The translations under genes and the position numbers were made by a program. Under the pieces are notes generated by a model that saw nothing but the letters and a program-made list of their open reading frames with translations, ran no database searches and was not told the origin of the DNA. From the NCBI RefSeq assembly GCF_022701215.1, contig NZ_CP089976.1, positions 990,001-1,022,000 of the forward strand: a stretch of 32,000 bases of DNA. Reading direction: 5' to 3'. Of this stretch, positions 4,306 through 17,968 are shown piece by piece. The DNA comes from Moraxella nasovis. GTDB taxonomy: Bacteria; Pseudomonadota; Gammaproteobacteria; Pseudomonadales; Moraxellaceae. The first letter of the stretch is position 1. Each line of letters starts with the position of its first letter.

Positions 4306-6153
4306 TCAGCCGTCCATCTCTCCTAAAAATCCGCCACTTTGTCTTGCCCAAAGCCCTGCATAAATACCGCCACGAGCGATAAGTTCATCATGACTGCCCA
4401 TCTCCACAATCTCCCCTTTATCCATGACAACCAGCTTATCTAGGCTTGCAATCGTGGAGAGACGATGGGCGATGGCGATGACGGTTTTGCCGGTCATCAT
4501 GTCGTCTAGGCTTTGAGTGATGGCGTGTTCTACTTCACTATCTAGGGCGGATGTGGCTTCATCAAGCAGTAAAATCGGTGCGTTTTTGAGCATGACACGA
4601 GCGATGGCGATACGCTGACGCTGACCACCAGACAGCTTAACCCCCCGCTCGCCGACTTGTACATCAAGCCCTGTATTGCCATATTTGTCGTGTAGGCTTT
4701 GGATAAACTCCCACGCATGGGCTTTTTTGGCAGCCATGATAATCTCATCATCAGTCGCATCAGGTCTGCCATAGGCGATGTTTTCTCGCACGGTGCGGTG
4801 AAGTAGGGACGTGTCTTGGGTTACCATGCCGATTTGATGGCGAAGTGAGTTTTGGGTAACTTGGCTGATGTCTTGACCATCAATACAAATTCGCCCACCG
4901 TCCACATCATAAAATCTTAGCAACAGATTGACAAGGCTAGATTTACCCGCCCCACTTCGCCCCACCAGACCGACTTTCTCGCCTGCTTTGATGCTAAGAT
5001 TAAATTGATTAAATAGCCCAAGTTGATCATCACCACGCCCATAATTAAACACCATCTCATCAAAAACAATATCCCCTGCCGTCACCACCAAATCCTTGGC
5101 ACCATCTTTGTCTGTGATGGCGTGTGGCATGGTCAGTGTTCCCATACCATCTTGCACCGTACCGATATGCTCAAACAAAGTTGCCGTCTGCCACATGATC
5201 CACTGAATCATGCCTTTTAATCTAAGGGCAATACCACTTGCCACCGCAATCGCCCCCACCGTAACCTGCCCTTGTGTCCACAGATAGACACCGATGGCAG
5301 TAGAGCCGACAATCATCATCAAAGACAACAGTTCAGTGGTCGTACCTAGCAAAGACACCCACCGCATTTGGGCGTGGACAGTACTCATAAAGTCCGTCAT
5401 GGCGGATTTGGAATAATCTAGCTCACGGTGTGAATGGCTAAATAATTTGACCGCACTGATGTTGGCATAAGCGTCCGTGATACGCCCTGTCATCAAGGCT
5501 CGTGCGTCCGCCTGCATACTTGCGGTTCGTTTTAGACGTGGCAAAAAAATTTTCATAATCACGCCTGCACAAACAAGCCACGCCACAAATGGCAAGAACA
5601 GCCACACATCAAGCCCAAACAAAATCACACCGCTCGTTACAAGATAAGCGATAACAAATGACATCATCTCCGCCATCGTCATAATCGTATCACGCACGGC
5701 AAGAGCGGTTTGCATCACCTTGGCAGACACACGCCCTGAAAATTCATCTTGATAAAACTGCATGGATTGCCCAAGCATGTGCTTATGAAACCACCATCTA
5801 AGTCGCATGGGAAACACGCCTTGCAAGGTCTGAAAGTGGATCAAATTCCCCAAAAACTCGCCAATGATAGACAAGACACACAAGCCCAAAATCAGCATGA
5901 TGGTCGCCCCTTTTTCTTGCCAAAGGGTCTGTGGGCTATAAGTGGTCAGCCAATCTACCACATCACCTGCCCAAGCAAATAACAGCGAACCAAATATTCC
6001 CAAAAGCATGGATAATAGCATACGCATCAGTATCCAGCCACGAGCACCCGCCGTACACGCCCACAAAAAGGCAAATAATCCGTCTTTGGCGGTGGGCATG
6101 GGGGTGTCAGGATAAGTGTCTAGGCGGTTTTCAAAGTAGGAAAATAGGGACAT
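4306..6153 (-). CDS. ABC transporter, fused permease/ATP-binding exporter (MsbA/multidrug-like)
   Basis: 615 aa. The N-terminal half is hydrophobic with about 6 TM segments. The C-terminal NBD has Walker A GRSGAGKSS, signature LSGGQRQR, Walker B ILLLDEATSALD and the H-loop AIAHRL. Confidence 0.88.
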   Translation of the reverse strand: MSLFSYFENRLDTYPDTPMPTAKDGLFAFLWACTAGARGWILMRMLLSMLLGIFGSLLFAWAGDVVDWLTTYSPQTLWQEKGATIMLILGLCVLSIIGEFLGNLIHFQTLQGVFPMRLRWWFHKHMLGQSMQFYQDEFSGRVSAKVMQTALAVRDTIMTMAEMMSFVIAYLVTSGVILFGLDVWLFLPFVAWLVCAGVIMKIFLPRLKRTASMQADARALMTGRITDAYANISAVKLFSHSHRELDYSKSAMTDFMSTVHAQMRWVSLLGTTTELLSLMMIVGSTAIGVYLWTQGQVTVGAIAVASGIALRLKGMIQWIMWQTATLFEHIGTVQDGMGTLTMPHAITDKDGAKDLVVTAGDIVFDEMVFNYGRGDDQLGLFNQFNLSIKAGEKVGLVGRSGAGKSSLVNLLLRFYDVDGGRICIDGQDISQVTQNSLRHQIGMVTQDTSLLHRTVRENIAYGRPDATDDEIIMAAKKAHAWEFIQSLHDKYGNTGLDVQVGERGVKLSGGQRQRIAIARVMLKNAPILLLDEATSALDSEVEHAITQSLDDMMTGKTVIAIAHRLSTIASLDKLVVMDKGEIVEMGSHDELIARGGIYAGLWARQSGGFLGEMDG

Positions 6154-9934: not shown

Positions 9935-10285
9935 ATGAGCAACATCACCAAACTTGACAGCAACGACAGCCTAAGCGAAATCGCCATTCATCAAGGCGTG
10001 GTCTATTTGGCAGGGCAAGTACCCAATGACGACAGCCTAGATATTAAAGGACAATCTCGTGAAGTATTCGCCAATATAGACGAAGCCCTTGCCAAGGCAG
10101 GTACAGATAAATCAAAACTGCTATCTGCTCAGGTGTTCATTACCGATTTGGCGAATTTTGACGCATTTAATGCCGAGTGGAATGCGTGGGTGCAAGGCAT
10201 CACACCCCCTGCTCGTGCGACCATTGAAGCAAAATTAGTCAATCCAAAATGGCTGATTGAGATTATGGTCATCGCAGCCATTTAA
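9935..10285 (+). CDS. RidA/YjgF family reactive-intermediate deaminase
   Basis: 116 aa with a YjgF-like pattern: VYLAGQVP, VFITDLANFDAFNAEW, PARATIEA. Its position downstream of dadA is functionally coherent, since RidA proteins quench imine intermediates. Confidence 0.8.
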   Translation: MSNITKLDSNDSLSEIAIHQGVVYLAGQVPNDDSLDIKGQSREVFANIDEALAKAGTDKSKLLSAQVFITDLANFDAFNAEWNAWVQGITPPARATIEAKLVNPKWLIEIMVIAAI

Positions 10286-10321
10286 TCAATAAGGATTTAA
10301 TATCAATAAGCTCATCACACC

Positions 10322-10366
10322 AAAGCACCAAGCCTAGATATTTGTAGGGTTTGGTGCTTTTTTTTG
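10322..10366 (+). terminator. Rho-independent terminator after the dadA/RidA-family unit
   Basis: AAAGCACCAAGCC pairs with GGGTTTGGTGCTTT to form the stem, followed by TTTTTTT. Confidence 0.65.
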
Positions 10367-10461
10367 GGTTGTGATAAAGTTAGATTATGGTTGTGGTTGA
10401 TTGGGATAAAGTTGAAATTTTGATGGGCTAAGCATCTTAAGTACATCAAACATTTAAGTAA

Positions 10462-12969
10462 TCAAACATCTATTTTATCAAATTCATCTCGCCCCACCAC
10501 CGTATTATAAAGCCCCACCTTGTCTTTGTGTCTGTCTAGCCCTGTGTATTCTAGACTACTGTCTTCATAGCGTTTAAATTTATATACCGCATCATTCATC
10601 AGACTGCCATTAAAGACATTTAGGCGGTTTAGCAGAGCAAAATCTGATTGCGTAAGACCTGTTACACGGCGAAATAAATCAGGTTCAAGCTGGGTAATCA
10701 CATCTTCTAGACAATGCTCACGATAATCGGTCAGATACATAAATATGGGTATGCGTGTGGCGAATTTGATGAGTTTTTCTTGGATTTGTTTGCGAAGCGA
10801 TTTGTATTCTTTTTCTTCATCGCTAAGTTCTTTTTTCTCTTTGGGTGTCAGCTCATCGCCTTTTTCTTTTTTTGTTTTTGCCACGTTTTCAGATTTATTG
10901 ATGATTGTCTCAATGTCTTGGTTTAGACTTCTAAATCCTTCAATACCCATTAAAGCTTTCATCGCTTTATCATCATTCATCAGCCGTGTCAATGTGTCGT
11001 TATCCACATTAACAAGTAAAGCACTCTCCCACCGCCGTGCCAAAAGTGTGGCAGTCGTGCCACTCATCGCCATGTCTAGAACGCCGCCTGCATCTATCTG
11101 CTTCATCGTGCTACCATCATAGGCAAGCACAGGCAAAAAGCGGATAAACTCACCCACCTTTTGTTCAGGATTGGTGTTCGTGTTGTCCAACCGACAGCTG
11201 TATTCAGCGATTTGGCGTAAGGCTCTATTGGGAGCAAAATCAAAGACATAGCACTGCTCTTTTAAGATGGTCTCGCCATGTGGGTCGGTGGGGTCATAGT
11301 TTTTAAGCACCCAAGGGGTCTGCACCCGAAATGCCGCCTGAAAATAAGTCTCTGGGCTTGTGGTATTACGGAGCATAAAAATCCCCGTCCACGGAGCGAC
11401 CGATACGCCTGTGGTGAGCTTACCGCAGGAGAGCGTGATGGTCTTGGTGGTCAAAGGATTGCTGCCCATCGCCTGCTGTACAGGGGGCAAGGCTTCTACA
11501 CCAATACCTGCCTGCGTGCCTGCACAGACGATAATTTTATACTCATGAAAAAACTGATTTTGTTTTTGGGCCAATAAATTATTCATCGCAAAACAGCTCG
11601 CCACAGATGGCAAAAACCAAAAAGTATGCAGTAGCCCATTTTTTAGATGCACATCACTAAATGGCATGGGCGGTTTTTTTGCCCCCATTTTTAGGGTGTC
11701 TACGGTCATCTCAGGCAGTTTGTTTTGGATAAATTCTAGCCAGCGTTGCACTTCGTTCTCATGGATAAACCGTGCCGTATCGCCATCACCTGTCGCACGA
11801 AAAAACTCATTTAAATCAAATTCATTAAACTCGCCTTTCTTTGCCACATCACGAATGCTATCAGGGAGCTGATAGGTCATCATCACCATCTTGGGTAGTG
11901 ATAAATACGGATTTTTGCCGTATGTGTCGTCCCACTCGGCTTTGGCTTTTTGTTCGTCTGAATACGTCCAGTTAAAAATCTGCTCTTCAATAAATTCGCC
12001 TGACGACATCGCCCGAAATGGCGTGCCTGACAAATACAAATAGTGGTCTGTGGTAATCGGCAAAAGCTCTTGGTCAAAGTCTTTTAAAAATGAGCTTTCG
12101 GCAAATTCTTGCTCTTTTTTGTCGGTTTCGCCATCAAATAAATCACGAGCATTCTCACGCCACGCCCCATAATGATATTCATCAAAAATCACGCAGTCCC
12201 AATTTAGGGCGTGTACCCATTCATTTTTGGCTTTGATACCGCCTGATCTGGTTTTGCCCAAAAAGTCTTGAAATGACCCAAAGCAGACAATCGGGCGATT
12301 TTTATCCGCCGTGTCAATCGTCAAATCGCTGTTTTTGCTGATGAACTGCCAACCTACAAAATCCACATGGCTTTTTAGGTCATTTTCCCAAGCATCTTGC
12401 ACCGCAGGCTTGAACGTCAAAATCAGTATACGCTCCCAACCCATCGCACGGGCAAGCTGATAACTGGCAAAAGTCTTGCCAAATCGCATTTTGGCATTCC
12501 ACAAAAATCTGGGCGATTTGCCATGATTGGCAGGCTCTGCCGAAAAACTCTCAAAATACGCCTTGGTGCGTGCCACCGCCTGTGCCTGCTCAGGACGTAG
12601 CCCAAAATCTGCCGTGCGCCTGTCCGCCATCGCCTTGCCTGTCTTAACAGTCAAAAATGCCGAATGGACATCGTCTAGTGTGCAAGCGAACCACTCGCCA
12701 TTTGGTCTGTCAAAACCCATCTTAATCAGGGCTTGATGAATGGCATGGTCGCTAAATGTCGTGCCGTCATCACGAACCGCCAGCTCATCAAAGACAATCC
12801 GCCAGCTCTGGCGTGGTGTGGCAATCGGATACTGTGCCTGCACACGTTCCAAGGCGGTCTTGGTGGTGTAGCCGACCTTGATACAGCCGTCAAACCGCTC
12901 ATCGGTATAGGCATAAATGCGGGGTGGGTTTAGGGTGTCGGTGAGATTGACGGGGGTTTGTGGGTTCAT
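10462..12969 (-). CDS. T5orf172/GIY-YIG-like N-terminal domain fused to an SF2 (ResIII/DEAD-like) helicase; candidate effector of the island operon
   Basis: 835 aa. Residues ~17-100, RIYAYTDERFDGCIKVGYTTKTALERVQ...GEWF, match the T5orf172 (MUG113, GIY-YIG superfamily) pattern. The helicase has motif I AKMRFGKTF (~158-167), motif II VIFDEYH (~260-266) and motif III LSGTPFRA (~313-320). The C-terminal region has a charged coiled-coil-like stretch, KEKGDELTPKEKKELSDEEKEYKSLRKQIQEK. The ATG overlaps the upstream stop (ATGA). Confidence 0.8.
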   Translation of the reverse strand: MNPQTPVNLTDTLNPPRIYAYTDERFDGCIKVGYTTKTALERVQAQYPIATPRQSWRIVFDELAVRDDGTTFSDHAIHQALIKMGFDRPNGEWFACTLDDVHSAFLTVKTGKAMADRRTADFGLRPEQAQAVARTKAYFESFSAEPANHGKSPRFLWNAKMRFGKTFASYQLARAMGWERILILTFKPAVQDAWENDLKSHVDFVGWQFISKNSDLTIDTADKNRPIVCFGSFQDFLGKTRSGGIKAKNEWVHALNWDCVIFDEYHYGAWRENARDLFDGETDKKEQEFAESSFLKDFDQELLPITTDHYLYLSGTPFRAMSSGEFIEEQIFNWTYSDEQKAKAEWDDTYGKNPYLSLPKMVMMTYQLPDSIRDVAKKGEFNEFDLNEFFRATGDGDTARFIHENEVQRWLEFIQNKLPEMTVDTLKMGAKKPPMPFSDVHLKNGLLHTFWFLPSVASCFAMNNLLAQKQNQFFHEYKIIVCAGTQAGIGVEALPPVQQAMGSNPLTTKTITLSCGKLTTGVSVAPWTGIFMLRNTTSPETYFQAAFRVQTPWVLKNYDPTDPHGETILKEQCYVFDFAPNRALRQIAEYSCRLDNTNTNPEQKVGEFIRFLPVLAYDGSTMKQIDAGGVLDMAMSGTTATLLARRWESALLVNVDNDTLTRLMNDDKAMKALMGIEGFRSLNQDIETIINKSENVAKTKKEKGDELTPKEKKELSDEEKEYKSLRKQIQEKLIKFATRIPIFMYLTDYREHCLEDVITQLEPDLFRRVTGLTQSDFALLNRLNVFNGSLMNDAVYKFKRYEDSSLEYTGLDRHKDKVGLYNTVVGRDEFDKIDV

Positions 12970-13647
12970 TGGGTTTTTCTCGCTTTTAAGAAAAATTCAA
13001 TTTCATCATTTTGAACTTTTTGATGATAAAAATTTAAAAAATCTTGTTCAAGATATTTATGACCATCTAATAAAAAAGGAATATGATTTCCCAAATCATT
13101 TGGCGAGATAATTAAATCTAATTTATCCGTCAATTCATTTTTATCCAAAAATTCTTGAACAATTTGTGTCGTTGTGGGATTACTATATAAATCAAATTCT
13201 TGATAATTTAATCCATCAATTGACGCCAGTTCTTTTCGTTTTTCGTATTTAAAGTCTTGAATAACATCTTGACAAAATTCCTTAAAATTTTCAAAATCTG
13301 TTGGCTTTTTAATCGCTTTTGTTGATAAAATAGAAACCTGTCGGAATTTGCTTTTATCTGACAAATCTCTAATATAAAAACATTTTTTTGCTATTTCTAT
13401 TACGAATTTCTTTTGGTGGATAATCCACATAAAATTCACAATTATCCAAATCAAAATGCTGTTTTAACTCATCTCTACCGCTATAAAAACAGCTTAAAAA
13501 ATCTTTTAAATCCAAAATATCATCAGCATTAGTAACAATACCGCCCAAATTTTGCTCGGCATTATCCCTAATAGATTGAAAATGTTTAACTAGATTAGTT
13601 TGATTAAAAGATACATTGCGTGTTTTTAACGTATAATTTTTACTCAT
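12966..13647 (-). pseudogene. unknown-function gene (~226 aa if intact) split by a frameshift at an A7 tract
   Basis: The N-terminal part (ATG 13647, MSKNYTLKTRNVSF...EIRNRNSKKMFLY*) stops at 13369. The C-terminal part continues in the +1 frame to 12966 (...KKCFYIRDLSDKSKF...KARKTQ*). With A6 instead of A7 at 13383-13389 the two parts join as ...NSKKCFYIRDL.... I recognise no domain. Confidence 0.6.
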
Positions 13648-15175
13648 TTTCAAGCTCCATCGGTCTAACCATCTTTTCAATAAAAGCAATCTCATCATCA
13701 GATAAACCATATTTTTGATACAATTCATCATCTGTCCACGATTTTGAAAAGTCTTGCATAGGTACGAATTGATAAACTTTTTGAGTTCCATCTTGTGTAT
13801 TCTTTTTAAGTAGAACCAAAAAGCGGAAAAATCTTGTACTAATATAAGACATTACATTTTTGCAAATTTGTTCATTTTCAAATGTTCCAATAACTAAATA
13901 AGTTTCTGTACAAGCTGTATTTGGTTTACCCAAAAATGGTTTTCCTAATACCCAAAAATTAGATGAAATTCTTTCCCCATAAGCTCTTGCAATATAAACT
14001 TTATACTGATTAACCCAATTTCTATTCCTATCTATATCATTTAAACTTATATAATTTATACCATCGCTTGTATACAATTCAACACTGTTACTATTTGATT
14101 TTGATTGTCCACGATATGATGTAGAAAAACCGAATGGCTTTCTTGAACTAACCAAATTTGAAAAACTTTTTTCTTTAAAATTTTTAATCTTTCTTAATAT
14201 AGAAATTGCCTGATTAAAACGAATAAAAGTTTCAGTGCCATCTTCTTTTAAATATCTATTCATTCTTGAAACAATACTATTTCCTTCAATGGTTTCCACC
14301 AAGCAAGTTCCAGAGTGGCTCTTATCCCACAAAAAATAAGAAACCCCGCCTGAAATATCCACGCCTGGAAAGCAATCATTTGAATCAATATAATCAACCA
14401 AAACTTTTAGACGTCTATCATTTAGCATTTCATCACGAAATTCATCAAGCCCTTTTCCACCTGCAAACCAACGACTAGGCGTAATCATAATCAGATAATG
14501 CGGATTTAATTTTTTGGCTTGCTGGATAAATTTATGATAAATAGGCGTGGCACTTGCAGAAGCACCACCATCCGATAATTGATACGGCGGATTACCAATA
14601 ATTACATCAAATTTCATTTTACTAATTTCCAATTCATAAAAAGATGGGTGGATAAATGCATACGCATGGGTCTCAAATTCATGCTCACGGCTGATACTGC
14701 CGTTACTTTTGTCATAGACATCTTGACTTGCTCCACAGGCTGTGCATTTGCCGTTTTGCCATGTATGCTCGCTTTGGGGGAAAAAGATATTGCCATCATT
14801 ATCATCAAATGCTGTACAAATGCTGTATTCTCCCCCTGCTCGCTTGGCACAATAGACGCTCCGCCGTGATAATAGAGCGGTCAGATGTGTGATGGCGATA
14901 CCGTAGAGTTGCTGGCTAAATATATGATTGAGCCGTTCTTGTAGGTCTGGGATTTGGTGTTCTAAGCCTTTGATGAGACGTTTGGTGATTTCTCGTAGGA
15001 ATACACCTGATTTGCAGACAGGATCCAAAAATGTCGTGTTTGGATTTTCAAATAATGCCTGGGGCAGTCTGTCCAATATTTCATTGACGAGCTTTGGCGG
15101 GGTAAAAACTTCATCATTGGATAAATTGGCAAGGCATTCCAAAACGTCTGGGTTGTAATTGATTAAATCACTCAT
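13640..15175 (-). CDS. N6-adenine DNA methyltransferase, gamma-class Eco57I-like, with a large C-terminal putative target-recognition region
   Basis: 511 aa. It has N-terminal DEVFTPPKLVNEILD, motif I variant FLDPVCKSGVFL, and motif IV FDVIIGNPPYQL (NPPY at residues 195-198, nt ~14582-14593). About 310 aa follow motif IV. Confidence 0.85.
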   Translation of the reverse strand: MSDLINYNPDVLECLANLSNDEVFTPPKLVNEILDRLPQALFENPNTTFLDPVCKSGVFLREITKRLIKGLEHQIPDLQERLNHIFSQQLYGIAITHLTALLSRRSVYCAKRAGGEYSICTAFDDNDGNIFFPQSEHTWQNGKCTACGASQDVYDKSNGSISREHEFETHAYAFIHPSFYELEISKMKFDVIIGNPPYQLSDGGASASATPIYHKFIQQAKKLNPHYLIMITPSRWFAGGKGLDEFRDEMLNDRRLKVLVDYIDSNDCFPGVDISGGVSYFLWDKSHSGTCLVETIEGNSIVSRMNRYLKEDGTETFIRFNQAISILRKIKNFKEKSFSNLVSSRKPFGFSTSYRGQSKSNSNSVELYTSDGINYISLNDIDRNRNWVNQYKVYIARAYGERISSNFWVLGKPFLGKPNTACTETYLVIGTFENEQICKNVMSYISTRFFRFLVLLKKNTQDGTQKVYQFVPMQDFSKSWTDDELYQKYGLSDDEIAFIEKMVRPMELENE

Positions 15176-15861
15176 TTTTTATACTCCTTGTCGCTTAAAT
15201 CAATATCCAAAAAATACACAGGCGGGTATTCTTTTATCGGCTCAGGGATATAAGCGTCATCGCCCAAATCCGAAAATAACGGCAATTCACGCTCGCTGGA
15301 TTTATTGATTAAATCAGGATAGACATATTCACGGCGTATCATATCCGTGCCAAGCATTGACCATTCACTAAACACAATGGGCGTGCCGTCTTTCTGCTTT
15401 AATGATAAAGCATCTCCACATAAGATATTTTTTGATAATAAAAAACGTGCCACGTCTATACAGCGTGGGTTAATGTTTTTAAAATGAGATGAGTAATGAT
15501 TTTGAAAAATCGCTAATAACCGCTCACGACATTCAGCGACATTGTCAGCCAACAGCTCAATACCATAAATGGAGCTAATGGCGGTAATGGCGTTTAATTC
15601 GTAGTTGTATTGAATTTTTTTGTGTTTTTGGTAAATGGCGGTAAGTTTTCGCTGTAATATCACCGCAAGAAAATTCCCCGTACCACAGGCAGGCTCTAAA
15701 AAGGTGGCTTCGGGGTCGGTGCATTGGTGAGCGACCAAATCAAGCATGGCATTGACTTCACGCTCATTTGTATAAACTTCGCCATGGTCTTTGATACGCT
15801 CACGAGACTTGGTCTGAGATGGGGACTGGGGGTGTGTTTGAGTGGCTGATTTAACTTGCAT
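15172..15861 (-). CDS. methyltransferase-like SAM-binding protein lacking the catalytic (D/N/S)PP(Y/F/W) motif
   Basis: 229 aa. It has GEVYTNEREVNAMLDLV (like the GEVFTP helix), canonical motif I FLEPACGTGNFL, motif II/III-like YGIELLADNV, and ILCGDALS. I could find no NPPY-type tetrad in the sequence. Its stop overlaps the next ATG (ATGA). Confidence 0.7.
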   Translation of the reverse strand: MQVKSATQTHPQSPSQTKSRERIKDHGEVYTNEREVNAMLDLVAHQCTDPEATFLEPACGTGNFLAVILQRKLTAIYQKHKKIQYNYELNAITAISSIYGIELLADNVAECRERLLAIFQNHYSSHFKNINPRCIDVARFLLSKNILCGDALSLKQKDGTPIVFSEWSMLGTDMIRREYVYPDLINKSSERELPLFSDLGDDAYIPEPIKEYPPVYFLDIDLSDKEYKK

Positions 15862-15952
15862 GGGATTGCCCCGTGCAGGTCAGATGGTTTGCTAAATGAG
15901 ATAAGAATGGGGTATGATGGGATACTAAGAGATTTTGGGTATGGCTTAGACT

Positions 15953-16106
15953 AGGTACGCAGGTACGCAGGTACGCAGGTACGCAGGTACGCAGGTACGC
16001 AGGTACGCAGGTACGCAGGTACGCAGGTACGCAGGTACGCAGGTACGCAGGTACGCAGGTACGCAGGTACGCAGGTACGCAGGTACGCAGGTACGCAGGT
16101 ACGCAG
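15953..16106. repeat. perfect tandem octanucleotide repeat (AGGTACGC)x19 plus a partial unit; the minus-strand unit is GCGTACCT
   Basis: Counted directly: units start at 15953 + 8k for k = 0 to 18, with no substitutions. It lies 92 nt upstream of the first ATG of the island operon (15861). Confidence 0.97.
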
Positions 16107-16178
16107 AGCATTATAGCGGGCAAATACAGCCTGTCAAGACAATACATGACAATTTCCAATAAAAAGTGAGAAAACTTG

Positions 16179-16207
16179 ATTCTATCATAAATAATAATAC
16201 CAACCAA
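16179..16207 (-). promoter_or_regulatory. putative sigma70 promoter upstream of the repeat, which would place the repeat in a ~310-nt leader
   Basis: The minus strand reads TTGGTT (16207-16202), a 17-nt spacer, then TAGAAT (16184-16179). This rests on sequence pattern only, and other promoters cannot be excluded. Confidence 0.3.
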
Positions 16208-16323
16208 GATGATTAGGGTGGTTTTGTTAATAAATACAGGTGTATTGATAAAGTAGAGATTCTTTGTATATCATACCGGTGAGATAATAGATAACACCAC
16301 AATTCATGCAAGCCCATTTGTAT

Positions 16324-16337
16324 GTTTCACATGAAAC
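16324..16337. repeat. 14-bp palindrome copy, central variant (GTTTCACATGAAAC)
   Basis: Intergenic, between the island and the guaA terminator. The extended context is TATGTTTCACATGAAACATA. Confidence 0.7.
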
Positions 16338-16371
16338 ATATATTTTGAATTCATCTTATCATCACACCCAA

Positions 16372-16399
16372 AAAAACCAAGCACATAGACTTGGTTTTT
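16372..16399 (-). terminator. Rho-independent terminator after guaA
   Basis: The minus strand reads AACCAAG-TCTATGTG-CTTGGTT followed by TTTTTT, immediately 3' of the guaA stop. Confidence 0.65.
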
Positions 16400-16405
16400 A
16401 TGTAT

Positions 16406-17968
16406 TTACTCCCACTCAATGGTCGCAGGTGGCTTGCTACTGACATCATATACCACACGAGACACATCACGGATTTCATTCATGATACGAGTTGAGATTT
16501 TATCCACCAAATCATAAGGCAAATGGGCAAAGCGTGCCGTCATAAAGTCCACCGTCTCAACCGCACGAAGTGCAATCACCCACGCATAACGTCTGCCATC
16601 ACCGACCACCCCTACCGACTTGACAGGCTGAAATACCGCAAATGCCTGTGCCGTCTTATCATACCAACCAGACGCACGAAGCTCCTGCATAAAGATGTCG
16701 TCCGCCATACGCAAAATATCGGCGTATTCTTTTTTGACTTCGCCCAAAATCCGCACGCCAAGACCCGGACCTGGGAATGGGTGGCGATAAATCATGTGAT
16801 GGGGAATGCCAAGTGCCACACCCAATTTGCGTACTTCATCTTTGAATAAATCACGCAGCGGCTCAACCAGTTCAAACGCCAAATCATCAGGCAAACCACC
16901 AACATTATGGTGCGATTTAATGACATGAGCCTTGCCTTGCTTGCTTGCCGCCGATTCAATCACATCAGGATAAATCGTCCCTTGCGCCAAGAATTTCACG
17001 CCATCTAGCTTACGTGCTTCTTCTGAAAACACTTCAATAAATTCTCGTCCGATGATTTTGCGTTTCGCTTCTGGGTCTGTTACGCCTGCCAATGCCATCA
17101 AAAAACGAGACTCAGCGTCAGCACGAATCACACGAATGCCCATATTCTGGGCGAACATTTGCATAACCTCATCGCCTTCATTTAGGCGTAATAAGCCATT
17201 ATCCACAAAAACGCAGGTTAATTGGTCGCCAATCGCCTTATGCAAAAGTGCCGCCACCACCGAACTATCCACACCGCCAGATAAGCCAAGCAATACCTTT
17301 TGGTCGCCGATTTGCTCTTTTAGTTGGGCGATGCGTAGCTCAATGATGTTCTCAGAATTCCACGCATGACCACAGCCACAAATACCATGTACAAAATTAG
17401 AAATCAGCACCACCCCTTTGTCGGTATGCGTAACTTCTGGGTGAAACTGCACCCCATAAAAGCCACGATGCTCATCGCTGGCAGATGCATACGGACAGCT
17501 AGGCGTGCTTGATGTGCTAACAAATCCTTCTGGCAATAAAGATACTTTATCCCCATGGCTCATCCACACTTGGACTTGGTTTTTGTCGTTGGCGATGTTA
17601 CTGAGCAAACGGTCTTGGTGTAATACGTCAATCTCAGCATAACCAAATTCATGCACCAAGCCAGCTTCTACCTTGCCACCAAACTGCTCTGCCATCGTCT
17701 GAAAGCCATAGCAAATACCAAGCACAGGTACGCCAAGCTCAAACACCGCTTTGGGGGCACGTGGACTGCCTGCCTCATGGACGCTCTCAGGACCGCCAGA
17801 TAAAATGATGCCTTTTGGATTAAAGGCTTTGATGTCATCATCAGACATATCAAACGCATACATCTCAGAATACACGCCAGCTTCACGAACACGGCGAGCG
17901 ATAAGCTGGCTGTATTGTGAGCCAAAATCTAGGATTAAAATGCGGTCAGTGGTGATGGTCTGCGTCAT
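16406..17968 (-). CDS. guaA: GMP synthase (glutamine-hydrolysing)
   Basis: 520 aa with the N-terminal GATase ([27 protein letters not shown]), the ATP-PPase P-loop SGGVDSSV, and the C-terminal PPATIEWE. Confidence 0.96.

Follow-up and report, generated by a model that had tools for sequence, protein, structure and literature searches.

A GIY-YIG-type domain fused to a superfamily 2 helicase in a putative three-gene restriction–modification operon of Moraxella nasovis

Introduction

The ATP-dependent restriction enzymes that have been worked out, those of Types I, ISP and III, all use a PD-(D/E)XK nuclease. For Types I and III this holds for every nuclease characterised so far (PMC2790908), in agreement with what was assumed in the original prediction for the locus described here, an annotation made by a model from the DNA alone. 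We have analysed gene H, a member of a family in which a helicase motor is joined instead to a nuclease domain of the GIY-YIG type. Gene H lies on the minus strand of a 32 000 nucleotide stretch of Moraxella nasovis DNA (hereafter the window; contig NZ_CP089976.1, positions 990,001 to 1,022,000), where it closes an operon that also contains two methyltransferase-like genes, A and M. We conclude that H is very probably the restriction subunit of a restriction–modification (R-M)-like module. We also favour, with less assurance, its identification as the translocase–nuclease subunit of a three-component, ATP-dependent system resembling Type ISP, with the gene order A-M-H.

Type ISP enzymes, such as LlaGI and LlaBIII, are single polypeptides in which a nuclease head is followed by a superfamily 2 (SF2) motor, a linker, a gamma-class N6-adenine methyltransferase and a target-recognition domain (TRD); they are plasmid-borne in lactic acid bacteria. 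In 2012 the authors of that work foresaw relatives ‘which utilize different endonuclease families (e.g. GIY-YIG)’ (PMC3553950). Earlier, Morgan et al. (2009) had drawn attention to nuclease-less homologues of MmeI lying next to YeeB, a helicase, and YeeC, a protein of the GIY-YIG type, and to ‘large single polypeptides’ that contain nuclease, helicase and methyltransferase; they speculated that these were R-M systems, and the prediction for DnmA(YeeA)–YeeB–YeeC was of an R-M system that depends on ATP and modifies a single strand (PMC2731913). In Vibrio crassostreae, homologues of DnmA–YeeB–YeeC have since been reported to give protection against some phages (PMC9973331).

The operon in the window has something in common with each of these systems. 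Relatives in which H and M are fused share with the Type ISP enzymes both the succession of domains and the carriage on plasmids of lactic acid bacteria. Unlike the Type ISP enzymes, H has a T5orf172/GIY-YIG head rather than an Mrr/PD-(D/E)XK one, the window splits over A, M and H the functions that are otherwise carried by one polypeptide, and a conserved half-methyltransferase, A, is present as an extra subunit. A structure of LlaBIII is available in the PDB; neither H nor M matched a PDB chain, so that sequence homology to Type ISP was not found. DnmA–YeeB–YeeC resembles A-M-H in its three genes and in its combination of a nuclease-less methyltransferase, an SF2 helicase and a T5orf172/GIY-YIG domain. 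Its helicase and T5orf172 protein are separate, however, with T5orf172 at the C-terminus, whereas in H they are fused, with T5orf172 at the N-terminus. By their descriptions, the two systems are also set apart by their methyltransferases, MmeI-like and with no A-type subunit described in DnmA–YeeB–YeeC, and of the Eco57I family in the window.

Type III enzymes (EcoP15I Res/Mod) resemble M plus H in pairing a methyltransferase that carries a TRD with a helicase–nuclease subunit, and the Pfam model ResIII matches H. The Mod subunit of Type III enzymes is a beta-class methyltransferase; M is a gamma-class enzyme of the Eco57I family. The PD-(D/E)XK nuclease of Res is C-terminal (PMC2790908), whereas the GIY-YIG-type domain of H is N-terminal. 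In Type I R-M operons, as in A-M-H, accessory genes of the same kinds gather where the modification and restriction genes meet (PMC9881135), but A-M-H has neither HsdS nor a RecB-family nuclease of the HsdR type, and its methyltransferase belongs to a different family. Finally, the phage T5orf172 nucleases, ICP1 Odn and related homing endonucleases, share the Pfam domain with H, and their conserved Arg and Glu are needed for cleavage (Odn E180A, PMC8263062). These proteins are small and are targeted by sequence-specific DNA-binding domains; H, by contrast, has a helicase motor and a methyltransferase partner.

Domains and motifs of gene H

Gene H (10462..12969 including the stop codon, minus strand) is a complete open reading frame (ORF) of 835 aa, whose ATG start overlaps the stop of the preceding gene (ATGA). 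The T5orf172/GIY-YIG-type domain occupies residues 17–112 (12634..12921, minus strand), as delimited by Pfam, alignments and an AlphaFold model; the Pfam T5orf172 model (PF10544) matches residues 18–105 with an E-value of 4.9e-8 and 33.8 bits, the gathering score being 20 bits. An SF2 helicase/translocase core with motifs Q, I, II, III, V and VI extends over residues ~120–600 (11170..12612, minus strand), within which residues 123–277 match Pfam ResIII at 26.8 bits (cut-off 22.5). The remaining residues, 601–835 (10465..11169, minus strand), form a C-terminal helical region with a K/E-rich helical hairpin at ~682–746.

All of the motif strings quoted in the original prediction are present in the minus-strand product: RIYAY (residues 17–21), IKVGYT (30–35) and GEWF (91–94) in the N-terminal domain, and MRFGKT (161–166, motif I), DEYH (263–266, motif II) and SGTP (314–317, motif III) in the helicase. 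Conservation was judged on an alignment of 47 sequences in which the lowest identity was 30%, and these positions proved to be conserved in it. Invariant or nearly so in the helicase were Q128 (Q motif), G164-K165-T166 (I), D263-E264-x-H266 (II), S314-G315-T316 (III), G521 (V) and Q544/R548 (VI). The SF2 core of H is complete, with its motifs in order. When 24 diverse N-terminal domains of the H family were compared with the domain models, T5orf172 matched every one of them and MUG113 matched 22. The proposed combination of a T5orf172/GIY-YIG-type N-terminus with an SF2 helicase is thus borne out by Pfam, by MUG113 and by motif conservation. Every motif in H is intact, and its nearest relatives are 77–82% identical to it. 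Because homologues of H number more than 8000 at E<1e-5, the architecture lies far beyond chance.

Comparisons with other models and structures were less informative. NCBIfam has no model for H. The top Foldseek matches of the full-length predicted model were Swi2/Snf2 ATPases, XPB, SauUSI and RadD, with low template modelling (TM) scores, denoting a generic SF2 or Swi2/Snf2-like fold. Searches of the PDB sequences with H found nothing at E<=1 with the single sequence or at E<=10 with the 47-sequence profile, save short matches to RapA and XPB around motif II, and searches with the profile of the N-terminal domain, with M and with A gave nothing useful. By these PDB sequence searches, no structure has been solved for any protein related to H, M or A.

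The C-terminal region is more revealing. A scan of species-representative genomes yielded more than 582 relatives of H, and comparisons were made on the best 80. Mean identity to these 80 relatives is highest in the protein at residues 601–810 (76–83%), as against 67% in the helicase core and 46% in the T5orf172 domain. Relatives fused to the methyltransferase keep this region, which there lies ~50 residues ahead of the methyltransferase. Since it is both the best conserved part of H and placed directly before the methyltransferase in the fused proteins, we think that it probably serves to couple H to M or to dock the two together, the Type ISP coupler providing the analogy. The original prediction had noted a K/E-rich stretch within the last ~250 residues, to which it could give no assignment. 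The stretch is real (residues ~690–740) and forms a long helical hairpin in the predicted model; the region around it is the part of H that has changed least and is likely to perform the coupling or docking role.

Conservation and spread of the A-M-H triad

The operon runs on the minus strand, with successive genes overlapping by 4–8 nt and H in last place. Its methyltransferase gene, M (13640..15175, 511 aa), encodes a gamma-class N6-adenine methyltransferase of the Eco57I family (Pfam Eco57I, E 7.5e-37); gene A (15172..15861, 229 aa) encodes a methyltransferase-like protein that matches Pfam MmeI_Mtase at positions 20–122 only. The restriction-like context claimed for H, with an adjoining methyltransferase gene, is therefore present, M and H belonging to one co-transcribed operon. 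Among 62 related loci with enough upstream sequence, 59 have A, M and H in that order on the same strand, and A is conserved in them, upstream of M, at 40–63% identity. The triad is kept at 29% identity in Legionella, and is found also on a Rhizobium plasmid.

The best 80 relatives are 64–77% identical to H and represent over 15 phyla, among them Cyanobacteria, Planctomycetota, Patescibacteria, Thermoplasmata and Woesearchaeota; across phyla H is the best conserved protein of the triad. Identity of this order between Moraxella and Cyanobacteria, Planctomycetota, Patescibacteria or archaeal metagenome-assembled genomes (MAGs) is unusually high for a defence gene, and implies frequent, recent transfer between phyla of a slowly evolving protein. 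The distribution of H is patchy and shows transfer across phyla, with homologues on plasmids and on islands at different chromosomal sites, where defence-type cargo genes and toxin–antitoxin or abortive infection (Abi) genes are found as neighbours. An exhaustive search of representatives with H returned 3883 clusters at E<1e-3 and 1051 at E<1e-30 (clustering at 50% identity).

Particularly telling are single-polypeptide fusions of 1184–1464 aa that are collinear with H and then M, comprising T5orf172 domain, helicase, C-terminal region, Eco57I methyltransferase and TRD. They occur on plasmids of Enterococcus, Lactiplantibacillus, Pediococcus and Lactococcus, and on the Enterococcus and Lactococcus plasmids examined the fusion is preceded by an A-like ‘N-6 DNA methylase’ that is 35% identical to A (E 8e-36). 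From these fusions, H and M can be seen to function as a single machine. The PADLOC model PDLC03626 evidently represents such a fused, helicase-containing form: H residues 112–764 align to model positions 146–803 (E 1.6e-36) and M residues 187–479 to positions 1010–1322 (E 8.8e-51). The ‘IIG’ in the naming of this model is a label for the R-M fusion, not a description of its mechanism, in which an ATPase motor takes part. In RefSeq, relatives of H are named ‘GIY-YIG nuclease family protein’ or ‘restriction endonuclease’. An N-terminal GIY-YIG-type module on a translocase had been called unusual in the original prediction; this is true with respect to characterised enzymes only, the family being abundant, routinely named in RefSeq and covered by a PADLOC model.

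The methyltransferase-like proteins M and A

M matches the PADLOC models MTase_II and REase_MTase_IIG; against MmeI_Mtase it scores 19.8 bits, under the 27-bit cut-off. The order of its motifs, with X and I before NPPY (residues 195–198), is that of the gamma class. Motif I has the non-canonical form DPVCKSG (residues 51–57), which is conserved family-wide, and M.TaqI has a similarly non-canonical motif I loop. We considered that M might be inactive, with A supplying S-adenosylmethionine (SAM) binding, and did not adopt this idea because of the conservation of DPVCKSG across the family. Between the SAM-binding motifs and NPPY, M contains a conserved insertion with four cysteines (C109, C120, C144 and C147, together with H137), which looks like a zinc-binding module placed inside the methyltransferase fold.

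Residues 286–440 of M (window 13856–14320) show a mean pairwise identity of 36%, against ~70% in the rest of the protein. Such hypervariability identifies this segment as a swappable TRD, and is typical of the turnover of specificity in R-M systems, supporting an R-M reading of the operon.

Motif X (HGEVYT) is present in A, as is motif I in canonical form (EPACGTG, residues 56–62, within an invariant EPACGTGNFL); a catalytic NPPY is missing, and the protein resembles the N-terminal half of a gamma-class methyltransferase. The combination of an invariant SAM-binding loop with a missing catalytic loop suggests that A is a pseudo-enzyme partner subunit. Its part might be to sense SAM or to provide a second means of reading DNA, by analogy with inactive partners such as METTL14.

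Conserved residues of the T5orf172 domain

In the T5orf172 domain of H, five residues, Y19, K31, G33, D74 and E92, never vary, and conservation reaches at least 90% at R42 and H78, while in the same alignments the rest of the domain is ~20–43% identical across relatives. Y19, K31, R42, D74, H78 and E92 make up a candidate active site, with catalytic roles assigned by analogy; K31 stands in place of the second Tyr of the GIY-YIG motif, as is usual for T5orf172. The Tyr, Arg and Glu expected of a GIY-YIG nuclease are thus all represented, by Y19, R42 and E92. An AlphaFold model of residues 1–120 had a predicted local distance difference test (pLDDT) score of 83.5 and a beta-beta-alpha-beta-alpha-alpha order, and Foldseek comparison of this model with BFVD gave predicted viral T5orf172/GIY-YIG proteins (E 2e-4 to 3e-3, TM 0.5–0.6). 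ICP1 Odn, itself a T5orf172 protein, cuts DNA in vitro and is inactivated by E180A (PMC8263062).

The invariance of Y19, K31, D74 and E92, and the near invariance of R42 and H78, favour an active nuclease. The suggestion made earlier, that this domain may be non-catalytic, is accordingly not the one we prefer, given that these residues and G33 have been retained in a domain that has otherwise diverged.

The head is not constant throughout the family. On the Lactococcus cremoris plasmid pUC047G, a fused helicase–methyltransferase relative of 1461 aa (L085:2664-7049) is without T5orf172 and has at its N-terminus a different region of ~230 aa, with a weak match to DUF4145 only. Judging from this protein, the nuclease head can apparently be exchanged as a module.

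The gene between M and H

A gene with no known domain (12969..13647, minus strand) separates M from H in the window. Its frame is broken at a run of seven A residues (A7, 13383–13389); deletion of one A restores an ORF of 226 aa that is collinear with homologues of 220 aa in Moraxella caviae and 223 aa in Gallibacterium. The M. caviae operon has its 220-aa gene intact between M and H, and in a tblastn search this protein matched the window over two frames. The frameshift may have truly inactivated the gene, may be a switch prone to slippage, or may reflect a sequencing error in the homopolymer. Pfam gave no match for the cargo protein, whose family has members only in M. caviae and Gallibacterium besides the window.

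The spacing of M and H was measured over 73 related loci. In 42 of them the gap is 135 nt or less, often exactly 35 nt, with nothing between the two genes; in the other 31 it is 0.27–2.9 kb and holds genes of diverse families (loci L004–L082), namely YhcG/DUF1016 PD-(D/E)XK, Bro-N, FRG, Schlafen-AlbA_2/HATPase_c_4, RhuM, AAA_15/21 and Fic/DOC. The M–H junction is an insertion hotspot. Genes of the DUF1016/YhcG, RhuM, Fic/DOC, Schlafen-like and AAA_15/21 kinds also occur as inserts among the core genes in Type I R-M operons (PMC9881135), and this sharing of cargo families again supports an R-M reading. The restriction of the cargo family to so few organisms, and the emptiness of the slot or its occupation by unrelated genes elsewhere, argue that the gene found here is lineage-specific and not the nuclease of the system.

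Base composition sets off part of this region. Within 12969–14320, G+C is 29% in the TRD/C-terminal half of M and 26.5% in the cargo gene, against 41–46% in the remainder of the operon and the flanks. So sharp a drop marks the locus as a recombinational mosaic, and indicates that 12969–14320 is a recently recombined segment which brought in the cargo gene along with a new specificity domain.

Tandem repeats in the predicted operon leader

Upstream of gene A there is a sigma-70 consensus promoter, TTGACA, 16 nt, TATAAT (16110..16137, minus strand), which matches at 12 of 12 hexamer positions and is the sole perfect site within 10200–16450. It is followed by a perfect tandem repeat of 19 copies of GCGTACCT (15953..16106, minus strand), all 100% identical, an array of which none is expected by chance. 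The repeat begins 3–5 nt past the −10 hexamer, depending on the register in which it is read, and ends ~92 nt ahead of the ATG of gene A; its position after the −10 places it at the predicted transcription start or 5′ leader of the operon.

The same layout recurs in seven related loci, with a different unit in each: 10 copies of CTGCGTGC in the leader of the M. caviae A-M-H operon, (ACGC) x8 in a Pasteurellaceae MAG, (AATCTGC) x8 in Gallibacterium, (GCAAC) x15 in Rodentibacter heidelbergensis, (ACGCACA) x3 in R. trehalosifermentans, (CACG) x ~30 in R. haemolyticus and (TGGCG) x23 in a Burkholderiales MAG. Units are thus of 4–8 nt, in 3 to ~30 copies (L001:4982-5067, L005:3309-3340, L007:4818-4892, L004 ~4660-4690, L054:4891-4946, L088:2411-2530 and L012:1-115). 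Such repeats were not found upstream of gene A in the remaining related loci that carry it. The occurrence of unrelated units at the same position points to repeats that are selected, hypermutable and convergent, and that would switch or tune the operon through phase-variable or graded expression.

An ORF of 118 aa at 15851..16207, with CVPAYLRT repeats, was considered as a coding repeat and rejected: it extends across the promoter, lacks an ATG downstream of the −10, and is read in a different frame from A.

Proposed mechanism and alternatives

If H is the translocase–nuclease subunit of a Type ISP-like system, M, probably with A, would recognise a short asymmetric site and methylate one adenine, on one strand, as the mark of self. 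At an unmethylated site, H docked on M through its C-terminal module would hydrolyse ATP and translocate along double-stranded DNA, and the T5orf172 domain would cut the DNA by means of Y19, R42 and E92 with a divalent metal ion. The cut would plausibly fall away from the site, upon collision or stalling of translocating complexes, as the analogy with Type ISP suggests; that cleavage is specifically of the collision type is a tentative proposal, and one that we would sooner expect to fail than to hold. The gene between M and H would be accessory cargo, outside the core machine.

Several observations count against this scheme. The literature searched contains no experimentally tested member of the H family, only passing mentions, and no biochemical, structural or phage-challenge study of A-M-H was found in it. 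No enzyme of Type ISP, I or III was found when PDB sequences were searched with the profile of H, and so the transfer of mechanism from these enzymes rests on architecture, not homology. The full-length AlphaFold model of H is poor (pLDDT 62), and the model of residues 1–120 has no significant match among solved structures, the top TM-scores being 0.43–0.45 to Slx1 at E>1; it is for this reason that the conserved residues are mapped to catalytic positions by analogy. In Bacillus subtilis, DnmA–YeeB–YeeC gave no protection from phage or transformation (PMC9973331), and a domesticated T5orf172 protein of the PLE satellite is reported to bind DNA and not to cut it (PMC8096241). In the window itself, the leader repeat may switch the operon off, and the frameshift in the cargo gene may lower translation of H, the stop of the one overlapping the start of the other (ATGA).

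The assignment of nuclease activity to H is the first matter to be weighed. It seems to us a fairly good bet that the mechanism is ATP-driven and that the T5orf172 domain supplies its nuclease. Were it instead a non-catalytic module for binding or sensing DNA, restriction would come from a BREX-like block of replication by the translocase or from a recruited nuclease; the UniProt name for T5orf172, ‘DNA-binding domain’, and the non-cutting PLE protein (PMC8096241) speak for this, as do the lack of support for the active-site geometry from any solved structure and the exchange of the N-terminal module in the Lactococcus fusion. Exchange is equally to be expected of a swappable nuclease head, however, as with Mrr in Type ISP enzymes; the locus has no other conserved nuclease gene; and the retention of the GIY-YIG Tyr, Arg and Glu, with K31, D74 and H78, while the remainder drifts, is the pattern of an enzyme active site. 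We therefore think a non-catalytic head unlikely. Far less probable still is the version in which H translocates only and the small protein encoded upstream (12969..13647) is the true nuclease, as the original prediction had allowed. Its gene fits so tightly between M and H that start and stop codons overlap, and a protein without a recognisable domain might conceivably be a novel nuclease, but the frame is broken here, homologues are confined to M. caviae and Gallibacterium, the slot is empty or differently filled in the other loci, and the fused H–M enzymes have no equivalent segment.

A second matter is whether the operon restricts DNA at all. It might be an epigenetic regulator of the phasevarion type, or an R-M relic, in which M methylates the chromosome and H has little or no role in defence. 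The DnmA cluster of B. subtilis has been judged in these terms, as an R-M relic that no longer functions and in which the methyltransferase serves to regulate genes (PMC9973331), and such a reading would suit both the hypermutable-looking repeats at the predicted transcription start, here and in seven related host-adapted loci, and a frameshift that removes translational coupling just upstream of H. A decaying gene would not be expected to remain full length with every motif intact and 77–82% identity to its nearest relatives, still less to be the best conserved of the triad across phyla. Moreover, phase-variable expression is compatible with active restriction in known Type I and Type III systems. 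We rate a regulator or relic as improbable, though not negligibly so. A general repair or recombination helicase–nuclease with no part in defence is another matter: GIY-YIG nucleases (UvrC, Slx1) and SF2 helicases both act in repair, and the models of H bear a weak structural resemblance to Slx1, XPB and RadD, but the strict linkage of H to a methyltransferase with a variable TRD, its patchy occurrence across phyla on plasmids and islands, and its defence-type, toxin–antitoxin or Abi neighbours make such a role hardly credible.

The restriction-subunit reading is therefore the one we retain for H. The original prediction was broadly right in relating the gene to defence, and went astray over its rarity and over the alternative nuclease. 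Gene H of the window belongs, with nothing to mark it out, to a family that is very large, annotated already and widely transferred; this family represents, at the same time, a variant of ATP-dependent R-M that experiment has yet to explore, one in which the head is of the GIY-YIG type and a pseudo-methyltransferase serves as a subunit. A-M-H ranks among the more widely transferred R-M-like modules and extends to plasmids of Enterococcus and Lactococcus. More speculatively, and with the balance tilted against it, A-M-H may constitute a distinct class of ATP-dependent restriction system, having the first GIY-YIG nuclease among motor-driven enzymes, an obligatory pseudo-methyltransferase, A, and tuning by repeats in host-adapted Moraxellaceae and Pasteurellaceae. 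Characterisation of a single member would provide a test of whether collision-type cleavage generalises beyond PD-(D/E)XK heads, and would give a function to thousands of proteins now annotated ‘GIY-YIG nuclease family protein’; study of A-M-H could also reveal a new form of control of R-M expression through leader repeats.

Surroundings of the operon

The operon stands among housekeeping genes. On one side are guaA, gyrB, recF, dnaN and dnaA, and GuaA groups with Moraxella species, which places the host in that genus; the opposite flank has a RidA-like gene, dadA and thiC.

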